Shown one piece after another: positions 13,638 to 60,807 of a stretch of 64,000 nt of DNA. The notes beneath the pieces were generated by a model. It saw only the letters and a program-made list of their open reading frames with translations. It did not search any database and was not told the origin of the DNA. How positions within the stretch are numbered: position 1 is the stretch's first letter; the number at the start of each line of letters is the position of its first letter. Source of the stretch: Scenedesmus sp. PABB004. Taxonomy: Eukaryota. The DNA lies in NCBI GenBank assembly GCA_014905635.1, contig JABVCE010000003.1, positions 310,001 through 374,000 on the forward strand, given 5' to 3'. Position numbers and translations under genes: made by a program.

Positions 13638-14035
13638 ATGGCAGCCCAGGCGCCGGCGCAGGCGCTGCCGGGCAGCGCGGCGGTGGGGACGGGGCAGGTG
13701 CGTGCGCGGGCCGGGCAGCAGCCGCTCTGCGGGGCTCTGGAGCCCCGCAGGGGCTGCGGGGCCGCCGCGACCGACCGCGCCGCGCCGGCCCGCAGGCGGC
13801 GCCGCCGCGCGCGCAGCTGCGCAGCACCAAGGAGGAGGCGAGCGCCGCGGCCAAAGCGCTGGCCGCGCTCGAGGACGCGACGGAGGAGGACGTGGACGCG
13901 GAGCTGCGCCTCGTGCGCCAGGCCGGCTCGCGGCGCAGCCTGCAGCGCTCGTTCGGCTTCGGCCGCTCCAGCAAGGCGGTCGTGGCCGCGGCCGCCGCCG
14001 CGGTGGACAAGGCGCCGGCGCCGGCGGCGCAGTGA
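13638..14035 (+). CDS. Small Ala-rich hypothetical protein (2 exons, about 90-100 aa)
   Basis: gccATGG start, CAG|GTGCGT donor at 13698, in-frame acceptor at 13795 or 13816, GC3-rich codons, TGA stop; no family recognised. Confidence 0.45.
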
Positions 14036-14045
14036 CCGCGCGGAG

Positions 14046-14142
14046 CAGATGGCGCCGGAGGCGGCCGCGGTGGCGGTTCAGGGCGGGCGACGTGCAACCT
14101 TGGGGACGCCGCCGCGCCCGCTCCCGCCGCGCGATCGCGCGC
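14046..14142 (+). repeat. Dispersed ~90-100 bp intergenic element, copy 1
   Basis: Colinear blocks shared with 17896-17982: CAGATGGCGC.GGAGGCGGCCGCGG, TTCAGGGCGGGCG, TGGGG, CCCGCCGCGCGATCGCGCGC. Confidence 0.75.
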
Positions 14143-14532
14143 GCCCGGCGACCGCCGTCCGACGTTGCGCCGCGCGACGCGCCGCTGCCTGGCGGGCGGT
14201 GCGGCGGCGCAGGCGGCCAGGCGCAGGGAGCAGAGCGGGGCGCGGGCCGCGCGCCCGCGCTGTGCGGCGGCGGATGCGGTGGCGGCACCGGGGCGCGCGG
14301 CGCGGGACGCGGCCGGCGGCGCGACACAGCCGGCCTCTCCCCGCACTGGTCGCCTGGGCAGGCCCCACCTCGGGTGGCGTGCGCGCAGCGAGCGGACGCG
14401 ACGTCCGCCGGACTACTACCACGCTGCGCGCGCGTGGCGAGGTGCCGCGACGCTCATTGGCGTCGCCCTCTCCCCCGCCACCTCCTCCGCCCCTCCGCAC
14501 GCCCCCCGCGCGCCCCCCGCCCGCCCGCCAAG

Positions 14533-17843: not shown

Positions 17844-17895
17844 CGTGGCGAGCCTGCTGACCTCGCGGAAAGGCCGGGCGCCGCGGGCGGGCGGC

Positions 17896-17982
17896 CAGAT
17901 GGCGCAGGAGGCGGCCGCGGTTCAGGGCGGGCGCGAGTGGAGCCTGGGGCTGCCACGCCCCGCCCGCCGCGCGATCGCGCGC
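17896..17982 (+). repeat. Dispersed ~90 bp intergenic element, copy 2
   Basis: Homologous to 14046-14142. Confidence 0.75.
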
Positions 17983-18493
17983 CCCTGATTCAACCCCGGC
18001 GGCCCCCCGCCCCCCTGCTGCGCCCGCGTGCAGCGCCCCCCCCCCCCCCCCCCCCCCCGCAGCGGGGCGCGGGCGGCGGCGCGCGCGGCGCGTGCCGCGG
18101 CGCAGCGCGCCGACCACCACAGGGAGGGTGGCGACGGATAAAGGAGGATGCCCCGGGCCCGGGACTCGCCCGGCGCGGCGCAGCAGGCCCGGTCGGCGCC
18201 GCGCTCCGCGGCGCCGGCGTCGCCGCCGCGCGCCGACCTGGCGCTTGGGGCTGGTTGGCCGCGCAGTAGCGTGCTGCTGCGCCCGACGGCCCCCGCCGCC
18301 GCTCGGCCGCCGCCGCCGTCGCCACGGCCGCTGCTGCTGCCGGGCGCGCGCCTCCGAGCGGCGGCCGCCCGCCCGGCAGCCACCAGCAGGCCTCCCCCCT
18401 GCGCGGGAGGCGGCACGTTTGGCGCCGCCGGCGCCGGCGGCGTCGCCAAGAACCCCGCCACGGCGGCGCGCCCGCCGGCTCCCCTGTGCCCCT

Positions 18494-53319: not shown

Positions 53320-55675
53320 TCAGCGGCAGCGGGCGTTCCTCGCGATGCAGCGGCCCCTGCACAGCTTCTGGTTGGCCGGGCAGGCGCAGCTCCCGCCCTT
53401 GCTGCTGCCCTTCTTCACGCAGGCCTGGGGCGCGCGGCAGTCGGCGCTGGAGCAGCACTGCTTGTTCGGGATGCACGTGCCGTCGCAGAACCTGGCCACG
53501 GCGGCGGCGGGCAGGCGGCGGCGGCGGCGGCGGCTCAGCGCCTGCGGCCGACGCCGGAACAGGGAAGGGGTCGCCGCCGCGCGCGACTCACTTTGAGCCG
53601 CGCGGGCAGGCGCAAAGTTTGCCGTCGCCGGGGCAGGTCAGGCCGACCGGGCAGGTCGGGTCGGGGTTGCTCTTGCAGCACACGGGCGGCCCATCCTCGA
53701 CGGGCGGGTAGCACCAGCCCTCGCAGTAAAACCAGCCCGGGTCGCAGGGCGACAAGCACTGCGCGCCACTCTCAGGGCAGTACGTGTCATAGCTGCAGGT
53801 GTCGCCGTCGGGACCGTCGGGACAGCACGCGTCCTCGGAGATGCACTCGCCTGCACGGCGCGGCGCGGCGCGGCGCGGCGCGGGCCGTCAGCGTGGAGCG
53901 GGCGGCGGCGGCGCGGGCCCGGCGCGCTGGCCGTGCGCAGAGCTGGCCTCAGCGCGCCCGGGCGAGCGTGTGCGGCACGCACCCCCGCACGGGCGCTCGC
54001 CGCCCGAGCAGCACGACCCAGAGCCGGCGTTGCAGGAGCAATAGCTGGCAAAGGGCACCCCGTCGGTGTCGTACGTGAGGGGCGGGCTGTGCGGGCGGGA
54101 GGGGGGGCGGCGTGAGGCGGCGGTGCGAGCGGCCCGGCGCAGGCGGGCCACGCGCCGCAGCGCCGCGCAGCTGCCCCCGGCGCGCGCACCAGGTGAAGCC
54201 GTCTGCCTGGTTGCACTCGTTGTAGCCGTCCAGCGGGCAGCACGAGCCGTCGGGCGTGCACCAGGCCTCTGCCGGGCGGCGGCGGGCGGCGGCGTGGCGC
54301 GCTGCCGCGTGCGGCGCGCTGCCCGCTGCTGCGCGCCCGGCCCCCGCCCGCGCGAGCGCGGGCGCCGGGCCCTCGCTCACCGTCCTGGTCCGCGCACAGG
54401 CGGAACTTGGCCGGGCACAGGTCATCGCACTTGCCGCCGTTCTCGGGGCAGTACTGGGTCGCGGAGCAGTCGTCAGGCTCAGAGCAGCACGTGTCCTTTG
54501 CGATGCAATCGACGCCGCACTCCTTGGTGCCGGCGGGGCAGCCGCTGCACTGAGACGCGTCCTCGACGCCGCACACGCACTGCGTGCCGGACTCGGTGCA
54601 GGTGAAGGGGCTGGGGCAGGTTGAGGAGCTGGTGATGCAGCACGTGCCCTCCAGCACGCACACGTCCTCGCCGTTGCTCCCGCCGTTGGCGCAGAAGAGA
54701 TAGCCAGGACTGGGGGCAGGGCGGGCACGGGCGGGCGTGCAGGTGAGGGGCTGGGTGGATTGGACCAGCGAGCGCGGCCGCCGCCGCGCGGGCCGGGCCG
54801 GCAGCGCCGCTCACTCGCAGAGGGCGGTGCACTTGCTGGTCGCCGCGTCGCAGCGCTGGCCGAGCGGGCAGTCTTCCGCGGTGGGGCAGCAATCGGTGAC
54901 CGGGATGCAGCCGCTGCCGCAGGCCTTGGTGCCCGCCGCGCAGCCGCCGCCCGGCGGCGGCGGCGGCGGCACCCCGCCGCCGCCGCCGCTCTTGTCCGTG
55001 TAGTACGCTGCGATGCGCGCGGCGGAGTCGCCGATGCGCTTGGCGCAGTTGGCCGTGACGGCGTCGCCCGCGGGCAGGCCCTGGTAGCTGACGGCCGGGT
55101 TGGAGAAGAGCGTGACGCGCTGGGACGACTTGTCGCCGCAGTCTCCGTAGCTGCGGCGCGGGGCGGCGAGAGGGCGGCACGCGTGTCGCGGCGGGGCGGG
55201 CGCGGCGCGGCGCGGGTGCGGCGCGGCGGCGGCGGTAGCGCGCGGGCGACGGCGGCGCGCCGCGCACCTGAGGATCGTGTTCCACGGCTGCGCCAGCTCG
55301 CACCTGCGGCGCGGACAGCGGCGCTCGGCGGCGCCCCAAGCGGGCCGCGGCCCGGGCGGCGGCTGCGGGCGGCTGCGGGCGGGGCTCACCGCTTGAAGCC
55401 GAACGCCCACGAGTCCATGTCGGCGTTCGGCCTGTAGTCCACCGCATAGTCGTGGCCACAGCCAGCGTTGTGACCTGCAGGCGGCCCGGCGGCCGTGGGG
55501 TGGCGCGCGCACAGCCGGCCGAGCAGCGCCGCCGAGCGGCAGCAGCAGGGCACGCTGCTGCAGCAGCGAGTGGCAGGGCAGCAGGCGCGCGGCGTGCCAG
55601 CAGTCTCGCGCGCTGCAGCAGGCACCTGTCTCGTGAGCCAATGTGAGGCTGTACCAGCAGCCACGCATCACCTGC

Positions 55676-55715
<40 letters not shown>

Positions 55716-57558
55716 CGGCGTGTGAGCGGATCGGCGGGCTGACCGGGGCGGAGCGCGCGCGGAGAGGGGGGAGAAGGCGCAGAGCTGGGCAGCGGGGCCA
55801 GCGCAGGCGCTGCCGCGCACCGCGGTGAACATCCAGTCCGCGGGCGCGTCGTAGTTGCCGGGCGCGTAGCCGATGCCGCACACGGTGTTGTCGGCGTTGG
55901 CAAAGGTCACCAGGTCGGCGCCGAGCTGCCACGGCGGCGGCGGCGCGGGGTCGGCTCGCTGCGCGGGCGCGGGCGCGGGCGCGCGCCGCAGCCGCGGCCG
56001 CGGCGCCGCCGCACCTCCTCGCGCCACGCCAACACGCCGGGGATCTTGCCGCCCGAGAGGTCATCAATGATCTTCTCGGCGCTGCTGGGGGAGGGCGTGG
56101 GCTCCGTGTAGGTGCTGACCTGGCGCGCGGCGGCAACACGGTGGCGGCCAGGGCGGCAGCGAGCGGCGTTTGGCGGCGGCCCGCGGGGCGGCCGCGTCTG
56201 CTGCGGCGCGGCTGCGGCGCGGCTGCGGCTGCGGCTGCGGCTGCGGCTGCAGCTGCGGCGGCGCACCTTGCGGAAGCCGACCTTGCGGATGACCACGTTG
56301 ACGCCCGAGTCTGTGAAGGCCTTGTTCATGAGCGCGACGCTCATGTCAATCTGCTTCTCCAGCTCCGCCTCGCCGTTGGCCGTGCTCGCGGCGGCGGCAC
56401 TGTAGACGACGAGCAGCGTCTGCTCGATGCGCCCGTCTTGGAGGAGCCGGCGCCGGCCGCCGCCGCCGCCGCCGCGCGGCACGGGCGCGTACATCGCGGC
56501 GCCGGGCACGTCGCGCACGGGGCGGACGTTGCGCGCGGTGCTGGCGTTGGCCCGCGGCGCGGCGCCGGTCACGCGGACGGCGGTCATGCCAGACGGGGCG
56601 GCGCGCGACACGGGGGCCATGCTCCGCCGCGTGGGCATGACGCCGCGCAGCGTGGCCGCCGCGCTCTTGGCCGGCTTGGCCTGCGCGCTGCGCTTGCTGT
56701 TGAACTGCACCGGGTGCCCGTGGCGGCGCTTGGGCTCGCCCGCGTGCTCGACGACGACGTGCACGCGCGGCGCGCCGCCCTCGGCGGCCGCGGCCGCGCC
56801 GGCCCCCCCGCCAGCCTTCCACCTGGCGGGCAGCACCTGCGGCGGCCGCGTTGGCGGCGACGCGGGTGAGCGGCGCGCGCGGGGCGGGCGCGGGCGAGGC
56901 GGGCGCGCGCGCGGGCGGGCGGGCGCGCGGGCGGGCGCGGGCGGGGCGGGCGCGGGCGGGGCGGGCGCGGGCGCGGGCGCACGCGGCGCACCAGGTAGTA
57001 GCGCCACGCCGCCGGCTGCACGCTCTTGTCCAGGAACTGCACGTTGCCGTGCACCGCGCCGCTGGCGTCAAACATGAGCGCCACGAAGCTCTCGGGCGCG
57101 GGCCGGTCGGCGAGCTGGCCGACCCACATGCCGGCGGGCGCGTCGACGTCGGAGCGGCGCACCGCCGCGACGGGCGCGTCCGAGTCGGGCAGCAGCAGCG
57201 TCACCGCCGTGGGCAGGCCCGAGAGCGCGTCCACGTCGACGTGCACCAGCTTCACCGGCCAGGCGCCCGCGCCTGCGGGCAGCGGCGGCGGCGGCGGGTG
57301 ACGCCGCTGCTGCTCGCGCGCGCGGGTGCCGCCGCCCCGGCGCCGCCCGGCGCTGCCCTCACCGCCGGCGGCCGCCGCGCCCGCGCCGCGCGCGGGGGGC
57401 GGCAGCAGATCAGGCGGCAGCTGCAGGAGCGTGGCGACGGGAGCAGCCGACGCGGGGCCGCTGAACTGCACGGCGCTCATCAGCGGCGTGGGCGCGCCCG
57501 CGGCCGCGGCGAGGCCCGACAGCGCGACGACGACGACCATCAGCATGCTGGGCGTCAT
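53320..57558 (-). CDS. Secreted metzincin (reprolysin-like) zinc metalloprotease with Cys-rich C-terminal repeats (about 14 exons)
   Basis: Hydrophobic signal (MLMVVVVALSGLAAAAG), prodomain ending RRRLLQ, LLVVYS, GADLV, CGIGY, HETGHNAGCGH (HExxHxxGxxH across an intron), FSNP, Pro linker, repeated C-x3-C-x4-5-CC modules. Confidence 0.85.
55475..55625 (-). repeat. Intron homologous, in inverted orientation, to 58640-58798
   Basis: Shared blocks ACCTGCAGGCGGCCCGGC and GCGCGCACAGCCGGCCGAG.AGCGCCGCCGAGCGGCAGCAGCAGGGC.CG.TGCTGCAGCAGC.AGTGGCAGGGCAGCAGGCGCGCG. Confidence 0.9.
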
Positions 57559-58011
57559 CGAGGCGGCCCCGGACGGCCTGCGGGAGCGCGGCAGCGCGCA
57601 GGAAGGTCGCCGAGGCATTCGCGGTGCGAACGCGGACCAATGGCCCCGCTCGCGTGCTGCGCGGGGCCGCCGTTCGAGCGCTGAGGCAGCTGGCTGCCCG
57701 GCCGGCCGTGAAGGGCCACGCCAAAGCGGCTCACCGCGGAGGAGGCGGGCGCGCCGGGATGCCGGCGGGCGGGGCTGCGCGACAATGCGGCTGGCAGCCA
57801 GTCAGCCTCTCCCAGCGTCGCGGACGGAGGAAGTAGGTGATGTGCTGAGCCGGGCGCCGCACAAGATAGCCGAGCGTCACCGATTGGGCTTGCCTGCACC
57901 ACGGTCCCGGCCAAACCCCCGCCTGCGCTTTCGCCCAGCTCCGATAAGGCCGCCCGTCGCTCTCGATGCTGCCGCCAGCGCGCAGGCACGCGCGCGGGGC
58001 CCGGTGCGCGC

Positions 58012-58546
58012 TCAGCCCATCTGGCTGGCGACCTTGATGCACTGGAGCACGTACTCGTGCAGCTTGTCCAGCGCCTCGCCAAAGTTGCCGTACGCAACCT
58101 TGACCACGGGAAGGCCCTGCGCCTCGTACGCGCACAGGTACTCCTGCAGGAGCCGCATGCGCCGCAGCGCCTCGCCCGGCGGCACCGCGCAGCCGCCCAG
58201 CTGCGCGAGCGCCTCCTCCTGCATGAGCTGGTGGTCGGCCTCGTCCATGCACACCAGGATGGGCACAAACAGCGGCCGCAGCACCTCGGCGCCGCACTGC
58301 GCGCCCGCCGCCGCCGCCGCCGCAGCACGCGCCGCGCCGCGGCCGAGGCCGGCAGCTGCCGGCTCGCGCGCCGGCGCCAGCGCCGGTGCGGGCGGCGCGT
58401 CCGCGGCCACCGCTGCTGCGGCACGCGGCGGGCCGGCCGCCTGGGCGCCAGCTGCACCCGCCTGCTGCTGCTGGTGCTGGGCTGGCGGGCCGCCGGCCGT
58501 GCCGTTGGCACCGCCACAGCCACCACCACTCCGCTGCAGCCCTCCC

Positions 58547-58609
<63 letters not shown>

Positions 58610-60807
58610 GGCAGCAGCGGCGGCTCCCCCCCGCGCTCGCCCTGCGCAGCCTGCAGAGACAGCTGCGCGACGCGCGCCTGCTGCCCTGCCACTAGCTGCT
58701 GCAGCATCGCGCCCTGCTGCTGCCGCTCGGCGGCGCTCCTCGGCCGGCTGTGCGCGCCAGGCGCCCCGCCGCCCAGGGGTGCCGGGCCGCCTGCAGGTGC
58801 CGCTAGGCTCAGCTCAGAAGCAGAGGGCTCCTGGCTGAGCAGGGGCGAGCAGCAGGAGGCCTGCCGGCTCACCACTTCCGTGGTGGAGTGCTCCAGGCTG
58901 ACTGCGGGCGAGGAGGCGCCGGGCATGGCGTCGCTGTCCTCCGAGTAGGGACTGCCCGGCAGCGGCAGCTGCCGGCCCAGCGCGTGGGCCAGCTGCTGCC
59001 GCGCCTGCCGCTGCCGGTCCGCCGACTGCGCGGTGCGCTGGCGGTGCTGGCGCAGCGCCACCGCCTCTGCGGTGGCCGCGCACACCTCGAGCTGGTCCAG
59101 CATCACCACCGCCGGCTGCGCCGCGGACGGCGTACGGGGCGAGGCGGCGGCCGGCCAGCCGGGCGCGGGCTCCTGCTGCTCCAGTTGCTGCTGCTGCTGC
59201 TGCTGCTGCTCCACCCGTTGCCCCTGTCGCTGCTGTGCACCAGGCGGCGACGCCGGCGGCAGCCGCGCCAGCACCTCTGCACCGGCAGAGAAGCTTCGCG
59301 CCGCGTGCGGCCCGCTACCGCGGCACGCCAGCGGCGAGGCGGTCTCAGGGTCCGCGGGGCTGCGCCCGCTGCCCGGCGGCGCCGGCGCCGCCGCCGGCGC
59401 GGGGGCGCGCGGCGGGCGCGCGGGGCCGGGCGCGTGCGGGCCGGGGCGCGCGGGCAGCATGATGACGCCGCGCTGGCCAAAGTCCTGGATGAGCAGCCCC
59501 GGGTCGAGGTGGAGGCCCTCAATGATGATGGGCTTGCCGTCACACAGCGTCTGCGCGGCGGGCGGGCGGGCGCGCCGCGCGCCGCGCGGCGTCGCCGCGG
59601 GGGCCCGGCGGCCGCGGGGCGCCCGCGCGCGCCCCGTGCGTGCGCGCGCGCCGCGCCTTGGTGAGGTCGCCGTCCATGCCCTTGCGCACGACGCACGCCT
59701 CGCGCCGGAACTCACCGACCAGCGCCGCGTCGCTCAGCCCCGGCGCGCCCAGAGCGGCTGCGGCGCGAGCGGGCAGTCGCCGCCGGCGCACAGCAGCTGC
59801 GGCGGCGGCGGCGGCGGCGGCGGCGCGCGTGGTGCCTGAGCCGCGCGCCCGCCCCGGCGGCGCGCCCCGGCGCCGCCCGGCTGCGTCGTGGGCGCCGTCC
59901 AGCGGCGGCCGCGCGGTCGGCTCGCCTCGTGGATGACGTCCGTCTGCATCACGTTGGGCACGTTGATGCGCGACGCGAGCTGCTGCGCGATCGTCGACTT
60001 GCCTGCGGCGCCGCCGCGGCGTGGGCGCGCGCCGGCGGGCGCGCGGGCGCGCGGGCGGGCGCGCGGGCGGGCGGGCGCACCGGTCCAGGCGGTGCCGCAG
60101 ATGATGATGGCCAGCGGGCGCCGCGCCGCGAAGAAGGCGGCGACCATGCGGTACGCGTCGATGTGGCTCTCGTCCAGGCCCTTGGCGCGCACGATGCTGA
60201 ACAGAACGCTCTCCAGCTGCGCCTGCGCGCCGCGCGCGCGCGCGCGCCCGTGCGCCCTGCTGGGCCGCGCCGCCGCCGCGCGCCCGGGCGGCGGCGCCGG
60301 CGGCCGTGCCGGCGCCGGCGGCGCGAGCGCGTGCGCGCCGCGCCTGCGTGACGTCTGTGAGGTTGCTGTCCACCAGGTACTTCTTGGTCTCCAGCGCGAT
60401 CTTCACCGCCTGCGCCCGCCCGCGGCGCGCCGCGGGGCGCGCTGCTCGCGCCGCGGGGCGCTGCCCTCGCGGCGGGGCGCTGCCCGCGCGGCGGTCGCGC
60501 GGCGGCGCGCGTGGCCGGCGCCGGCGCGGCGGCCGCGCCTTGATGTATGGGATCTTGGTGACGGTGAGCATGCGGCAGATGAGGAAGCGGGAGAGCACGT
60601 AGTAGTGGTCCAGGTTGGCGCCGAGCCACACCTTGACCTGCGCGCCGCGCTGGCGCGTCGGCTGCTGCGGCGGCGGTGCGCGCTGCGGCTGGCGCGCACG
60701 CAGTGGCCGGCGCGCCGTTCGCGCGCCTTGAAGAAGTCATACTTGGACGTGCCGGTGCGCTTCTTGGGCCGCGCGGGGTCGCGCGGCAGCGGCGGCGGCG
60801 CCTCCAT
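58012..60807 (-). CDS. P-loop NTPase, 2-phosphoglycerate-kinase-related plant family (7 exons)
   Basis: SKYDFFKVKVWLGANLDHYYVLSRFL, IIICGTAWTGKSTIAQQLA (Walker A), KPIIIEGLHLDP, C-terminal LDKLHEYVLQCI; long low-complexity insert in the last exon. Confidence 0.85.
58549..58606 (-). repeat. (CAG)n polyglutamine tract
   Basis: Perfect CTG run on +. Confidence 0.9.

Follow-up and report, generated by a model that had tools for sequence, protein, structure and literature searches.

Introduction

The origin of new spliceosomal introns is a long-standing question and, as stated in two studies of the subject, most recent intron gains have no source sequence that can be named (PMC4202315, PMC3443670). 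Gain during the repair of DNA breaks is generally accepted as a possible route, with few securely documented examples; one review gives five events in its Table 1, and the evidence set out there consists of introns similar to mitochondrial, not nuclear, DNA (PMC3443670). Among the neointrons of Daphnia, those with a named source match mitochondrial or ribosomal RNA genes or else give questionable matches (PMC4202315), and the nuclear matches listed for Drosophila introns have e-values of up to 0.1 (PMC3296678). Here, we analysed a stretch of 64,000 nucleotides (nt) from Scenedesmus sp. PABB004 (assembly GCA_014905635.1, contig JABVCE010000003.1, positions 310,001 to 374,000, forward strand), called the window below, and describe a candidate intron of 151 nt in a metzincin-like protease gene that matches, in inverted orientation, a segment of a coding exon of the neighbouring P-loop NTPase gene.

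Many introner families, though not all, carry terminal inverted repeats or locus-specific target-site duplications. To be classed as such a family, at least four similar introns have to be present in unrelated genes of one genome, and the families described have from 5 to more than 2,000 copies (PMC9860276). An intron can also arise by tandem duplication of an exon segment containing AGGT, as the same review of gain mechanisms describes (PMC3443670). A search of a limited literature collection for intron gain through templated or inverted copying returned no description of an intron copied from the antisense strand of a neighbouring gene's exon.

Results

A candidate intron that matches an exon of the adjacent gene

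The candidate intron (55475..55625, minus strand) has GT..AG ends, with CAG/GTGCCT at the donor and CCTGCAG/GT at the acceptor (slashes mark splice boundaries); it is delimited by these boundaries and the reading frame, and it matches a second copy. The latter, placed by alignment, frame and third-position G+C content (GC), is a segment of 158 nt in the coding linker of the last NTPase exon (58641..58798, minus strand; open-frame residues ~312-365). The sense strand of the intron corresponds to the plus strand of 58641-58798; the two copies are inverted and lie ~3.1 kilobases (kb) apart.

A preliminary description of this locus had claimed that the intron, which splits the motif HET/GH, aligns nearly end to end with the neighbour's exon and that the match takes in the acceptor, and both statements hold. 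The blastn comparison of the intron with the neighbour gave 84.2% identity over 158 columns (161 bits, E 1.7e-42), and a local alignment of 55622..55473 with 58641..58798 has 135 of 160 columns identical, with 13 substitutions and five events of insertion or deletion (indels). The homology spans from base 4 of the intron to 2 bases beyond the acceptor, that is, to within 3 bases of the intron at each end, so that no stretch of the interval is left over in which an older intron could survive. Such a coincidence of homology and intron is what an insertion that became an intron would predict. The two translations quoted in the preliminary description are also correct.

The match is not equally strong throughout. 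The repeat search returned a core of 93 nt (55505-55597 vs 58665-58757, 94% identity) and a segment of 38 nt (55473-55510 vs 58761-58798, 79%). In anchored extensions with linear gap costs the flanks outside the core were not significant on their own (P 0.035-0.12 on the left and 0.36-0.38 on the right), which counts against the wording 'end to end'. The right flank fails this procedure because of a 9-base indel, beyond which it is secured by a unique 18-mer: both copies share their final 18 bases, which end in CTGCAGGT and have no other occurrence in the window. The match is weakest in the left 28 bases, where 20 of 26 columns agree. The core, with 6 substitutions in 93 positions, is not clearly less substituted than the flanks, with 7 in ~53.

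As a control for chance similarity, the best hits of 100 dinucleotide-preserving shuffles had a mean of 40.6 bits (standard deviation 4.6, maximum 54.5). The search for further copies by BLASTN that had been proposed in the preliminary description was run on the window and returned just the two copies, the next-best match of the intron reaching 37.4 bits. Comparing the window with itself (E<1e-10, low-complexity filter on) yielded two non-self pairs, this one with 165 bits and an unrelated direct repeat with 78 bits, and neither search found a third copy in the 64 kb. The two stretches are true homologues and the sole copies within the window.

The candidate intron splits a zinc-binding motif

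All exon and intron models used here are our own. HExxHxxGxxH(D) is the zinc-binding consensus of metzincins, and in the protease gene HExxHxxGxxHD is found solely once the interval 55625-55475 is removed, since the candidate intron splits the motif as HETG/HNAGCGHD. The upstream exon (55626..55671, minus strand; frame reading and spliced translation) ends in ...LAHETG with the first base of the Gly codon, and the downstream exon (55390..55474, minus strand; third-position GC 0.89) opens with the GT of that codon, continues with HNAGCGHD... and completes the motif. In the translation computed from these coordinates, taking the interval out leaves ...LAHETG continuous and in frame with HNAGCGHD...; if it is read through, the frame changes and the second half of the motif is lost.

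We name the protease by this motif, and by no family beyond it, because its single exons gave no usable match in Pfam, PDB or Atlas (the PDB query was a 27-residue exon, with 0 hits). Pfam run on the long open frames likewise returned nothing usable. There is no second such motif anywhere in the window and hence no paralogous protease there for comparison.

Several features bear on whether the interval is spliced: its GT..AG ends, a length that is not a multiple of 3, the restored HExxHxxGxxHD and an intact coding signal downstream. We quantified the latter by D, the largest GC difference between the three codon phases. The exons downstream of the intron keep a strong coding periodicity (D 0.44 and 0.34) despite a substitution divergence of ~9% between the two copies. 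Because the downstream exons keep both the zinc motif and this periodicity, the interval is predicted to be spliced, and the sequence argues against an insertion that has killed the gene. The candidate intron is similar in length to its neighbours (151 nt vs 147 and 149). Its donor, GTGCCT, lacks the G at position +5 that is present in five of five other GT donors modelled, which would fit a young or weak splice site, one not shaped for long.

The preliminary description had also pointed to CAGGT being repeated at the two intron boundaries. The repeat is present, and its use as evidence falls away: a 4-base boundary repeat (AGGT or GGTG) occurs as well in three of the four other modelled protease introns. 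Boundary repeats need to be compared against such a background, as is set out in the review (PMC3443670). Since the splice consensus itself produces the repeat, we regard it as background and reject CAGGT as a target-site duplication.

Three further observations concern the protease gene. The intron upstream of the one studied here (55820-55672, minus strand) contains a (GCC)12 run at 55680-55716. The part encoding the C-terminus (53600-55150, minus strand) has several Cys-rich repeats, e.g. C..G.K.CG..CI....CC, and two 56-nt stretches in this Cys-rich region (54502-54557 vs 54904-54959) are 75% alike.

A proposed origin by local templated insertion

We consider that a local inverted templated insertion at an AG/GT site created the intron, a reading to which we give about an even chance. 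Some 150-160 bases of the Q-rich coding linker of the NTPase gene would have been copied, inverted, into the protease gene ~3.1 kb away, at an ACAG/GT inside the Gly codon of HETGH where no intron would have stood before. The antisense of a CAG-rich coding stretch is pyrimidine-rich and ends in CTGCAG/GT, and for that reason the insert would supply a ready acceptor and restore the Gly codon. The donor would have been provided either by the original codon's own GT or by the opening bases of the inserted piece. With a source ending in CTGCAGGT, two AGGT sites would be present after the insertion and the segment between them could be spliced out with the Gly codon intact. Given this acceptor, a donor and the restored codon, the insert would be removed as an intron and the zinc site would survive.

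An inverted copy a few kb away has the geometry of template-switch or templated-insertion events. The likely route would be templated synthesis from nearby sequence, through either double-strand-break repair or a template switch during replication; the copies have diverged too much for a switch at the fork to be distinguished from a templated fill-in at a break.

The neighbouring gene and the direction of copying

Both genes are encoded on the minus strand, with ~450 bases between them, and relative to the coding strand of the NTPase the intron runs antisense. The long last exon of the NTPase gene (58012..59553, minus strand; delimited by its open frame and by islands shared with orthologues) runs from TLCDGKPIIIEG to the stop and encodes a Q-rich disordered linker with conserved islands; the frame 59733-58012 (minus strand) is open over 573 codons. 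Conserved blocks appear in the same order in orthologues: TL.DGKPIIIEG.HLDPGL, VVMLDQL.VCAATAEAVAL, EHSTTEVVSRQ...LLSQEPSA, PLFVP.LV.MDEADH and a highly conserved C-terminus. Identity to the NTPase in the best local alignment is 85% for the orthologue P0003 and 83-92% for five of the nine protein hits. P0003 is a complete open reading frame from a transcriptome, and in relatives the long Q-rich linker is therefore part of the coding mRNA. PF13238, a P-loop family, is present in two of the nine hits, P0003 and P0009, and a Walker A loop, GTAWTG/KST, split by an intron, lies on upstream NTPase exons. On the Walker A loop and the homology to PF13238 proteins, the host of the second copy is a P-loop NTPase of the AAA_18 type, putatively 2-phosphoglycerate-kinase/LPA1-like.

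The element lies in frame in the NTPase, directly after the LLSQEPSA island, and its core is coding-like in that frame, with a third-position GC of 0.92-0.96 and a second-position GC of 0.44-0.68. To compare the intron with its surroundings we used seven other modelled introns (four of the protease and three of the NTPase gene) and nine exons. The other introns have a GC of 0.84-0.97 and D of 0.07-0.10, and the exons a GC of 0.63-0.78 and D of 0.27-0.61. The studied intron has a GC of 0.79, and its best-kept core (55505..55597, minus strand) a D of 0.35. In windows of 72 nt, D averages 0.10 in the other introns (maximum 0.29, 299 windows), 0.45 in the exons (830 windows) and 0.355 in the studied intron, 75% of whose 80 windows exceed the maximum of the other introns. 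The outcome is the same when the studied intron is set against just the five whose GT..AG ends are clear (D 0.08-0.10). Thus, in GC and three-base periodicity the intron is exon-like, unlike the seven others.

Furthermore, the spacer between the LLSQEPSA-type island and the next Q-run measures 69 residues in this NTPase and would be reduced to 16 if the element of 53 residues were taken out. In the four orthologues that bear the island it measures 47, 48, 95 and 97 residues; this count omits P0004, which is without the island, and P0005 and P0007, which do not reach it.

These data bear on the copying having gone the other way, which the preliminary description had offered as an alternative. 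What was captured in the NTPase linker, and became coding by exonisation, would then be the intron itself or a cDNA made from its excised RNA. Such a history would account for a copied unit that is nearly the exact intron (base 4 to 2 bases past its end), as a copy of an excised intron would give; a disordered Q-rich linker, in which the copy lies in frame, would tolerate 53 extra residues, and the element is weakly similar to the linkers of orthologues. Against it stand the exon-like GC and periodicity of the intron, the spacer of 16 residues that would remain without the element, compared with 47-97 in four of four orthologues, and a match that takes in 2 exon bases beyond the acceptor and omits the first 3 bases of the intron. 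Because the intron is exon-like in composition and the NTPase segment fills a spacer common to orthologues, copying from exon to intron appears favoured, and we consider exonisation unlikely, though of the alternatives it survives best. Composition, periodicity and spacer thus favour that part of the earlier inference in which a templated insertion was put first, and the boundary repeat adds nothing to it.

Two side observations were made in the NTPase gene. Just downstream of the copied segment (58548-58607, minus strand) there is an unbroken run of ~20 CAG codons encoding polyglutamine, and the Q-runs of orthologues at this place are shorter or interrupted. Two introns with approximate limits inferred from the orthologue alignment (60538-60413 and 60343-60220, minus strand) have no GT at the expected donor and both show AG/GCGCGG; they may be GC-AG introns, perhaps common in so GC-rich a genome, or their limits may lie elsewhere.

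Single event or family

The second alternative is that both copies derive from a dispersed family of short mobile elements, introners or similar to miniature inverted-repeat transposable elements (MITEs), of which one member is now an intron and the other lies in the NTPase exon. The coincidence of the unit with the intron would suit such an origin, and introners, as characterised in a broad survey, are frequent in aquatic eukaryotes, can be GC-rich and measure 30-654 nt (PMC9860276). Against it, two sphaeroplealean genomes are given in Supplementary Table 4 of that survey as being without introners (PMC9860276). The structure of the element also speaks against a mobile family. We found no terminal inverted repeats and no inverted pair that joins the intron ends, and the intron folds no better than its shuffles (z -0.25), and a MITE-like hairpin was dropped on these two grounds. 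The composition is coding-like as well. The 64 kb hold one intron and one exonic copy; a sparse dispersed family would rarely have two members at a distance of 3.1 kb and no other in the remaining 60 kb, a point that weighs more than the database searches below.

Searches beyond the window returned no extra copy either. A 20-base word from the core found seven loci among JGI metagenome contigs, all of them chance matches of 20-40 bases on contigs of 50-72% GC, in a collection that holds no part of the window. A 27-base word had 0 matches in GTDB genomes and a scan of IMG/VR also had 0, both being weak negatives as the source organism is absent there. The same limit applies to the protein collections: NTPase residues 281-372 compared with 5.8 billion proteins (of 315-1003 residues) gave one hit, P0001, through the neighbouring island only, and a profile of both translations gave 0 hits against 1.84 billion representatives. 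Queried with the 93-residue frame that spans intron and exon, proteins of 51-163 residues likewise gave 0 hits. Altogether we regard a mobile family as a slightly less probable explanation than exonisation.

Setting of the locus

The G+C content is 76-81% across the entire window, which contains many CAG and GCC runs, and its genes are split by short introns. Of proteins with a named source, the closest to the NTPase product are transcript-derived ones from Flechtneria rotunda and Enallax costatus (Scenedesmaceae, Sphaeropleales, Chlorophyceae), which on sequence grounds would place the source organism as a very GC-rich alga near Scenedesmaceae.

Short contigs in two freshwater metagenome runs of one study are 98-99% identical to parts of 53500-60500, for example to 57772-58191 with five differences from the window, so a near-identical alga is present in that freshwater habitat at low abundance. 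None of these pieces (150-420 bases) covers 55475-55625 or 58641-58798. The joints listed for the two runs derive from unrelated GC-rich contigs and were set aside.

The other repeat of the window at E<1e-10 is direct and pairs 14020-14145 with 17873-17985 (~115-125 nt, ~76% identity, 3.85 kb apart). It contains the palindrome GCGCGATCGCGCGC, and no clear coding frame was seen in it.

Discussion

The homology between the candidate intron and the neighbouring exon, its extent and orientation, its uniqueness in the window and the exon-like make-up of the intron were all directly observed. Several points weigh against the insertion history that we propose to account for them. The divergence of the copies, with 13 of 148 aligned bases substituted and five indels, indicates that the event would not have been very recent, and the CAGGT repeat lends it no support. 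Two of the three NTPase introns in the comparison set are without a GT donor at the expected place, and are either GC-AG introns or of uncertain limits. The polarity of copying rests on composition and on spacer lengths at the protein level, in a linker that is disordered and fast-evolving; in BLASTP, the alignment to P0001 runs from the island weakly, at low identity, into the first ~20 residues of the element, and that to P0006 does not extend into it. Finally, the periodicity of the intron could come from CAG/CTG microsatellite-like sequence that was never coding.

A further explanation, also raised in the preliminary description, is that an old intron at this site was overwritten by conversion or by a templated patch from the NTPase exon, in which case no new intron position would have arisen. 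The length of 151 nt, close to the 147 and 149 nt of the neighbouring introns, would agree with this. The patch would, on the other hand, have had to replace everything from base 4 to the last base of the intron and leave the exons untouched, and conversion needs prior homology, which an intron would not be expected to have with the antisense strand of an exon in another gene. We therefore find overwriting doubtful, and more so than either exonisation or a mobile family.

It is also conceivable that the arrangement has a function. The neighbour's mRNA would be complementary to the intron RNA over ~150 bases, a transcript reading through both genes would form a long hairpin, and the intron could in this way couple both genes via small RNAs or duplexes. 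We found no positive sign of such coupling, the mismatches in the alignment showing no preference for G:U-compatible changes, and think it very improbable; if true, it would mean a regulatory link born from intron gain. Chance similarity of low-complexity DNA in so GC-rich a window with its many CAG and GCC runs, or an artefact of assembly, can practically be dismissed, as 161-165 bits stand against a shuffle maximum of 54.5 (n=100) and a next real match of 37.4, and 84% identity with indels is not the near-identity of a collapsed or chimeric assembly.

If the gain by local templated insertion is true, the antisense of a CAG-rich coding exon would serve as an intron just as it stands, its body being pyrimidine-rich and its acceptor CTGCAG/GT, and a local templated copy could be placed harmlessly inside a catalytic motif. 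This suggests screening whole genomes, in particular those of very GC-rich algae in which Q-rich linkers are numerous, for introns with an inverted match in a nearby exon.

How does the locus compare with the described origins of introns? The tandem duplication of AGGT-containing exon segments is similar in that exon-derived sequence turns into an intron and a duplicated AGGT yields both splice sites with the protein unchanged. It is ruled out here, the copy being inverted, 3.1 kb away and from the neighbouring gene, rather than direct and adjacent. Intron transposition by reverse splicing is ruled out as well, for the partner is coding-like exon sequence that is antisense to its gene and not a sense spliceosomal intron. 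With introners the locus shares a discrete unit of ~150 nt that coincides with an intron, a similar copy elsewhere and an aquatic alga as host; it differs in its count within 64 kb, a single intron plus a single exonic copy, in its lack of terminal inverted repeats and in its coding-like composition. Short-range template switching and templated inverted insertions likewise place an inverted copy of nearby sequence at a break. To our knowledge, the template-switch events reported are mostly much shorter or much larger, and none has been presented as making an intron.

The closest resemblance is to intron gain in break repair, where ectopic or foreign DNA at a protosplice-like site becomes a whole intron, target and insert each contribute part of the splice sites, and the source can be recognised by sequence. 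As in templated or captured-DNA gain, a donor sequence for the intron is identifiable here beyond chance; junction repeats or microhomology do not rise above the background of the other introns. The cases in Daphnia are polymorphic, whereas the gain at this locus is a proposed one. We thus regard the locus as one unconfirmed case of an already known class of intron origin and not as a new mechanism. What sets it apart from the described break-repair gains is its source: coding sequence from a nuclear exon of the gene next to it, in inverted orientation, at a distance of 3.1 kb and with a match of E ~1e-41.

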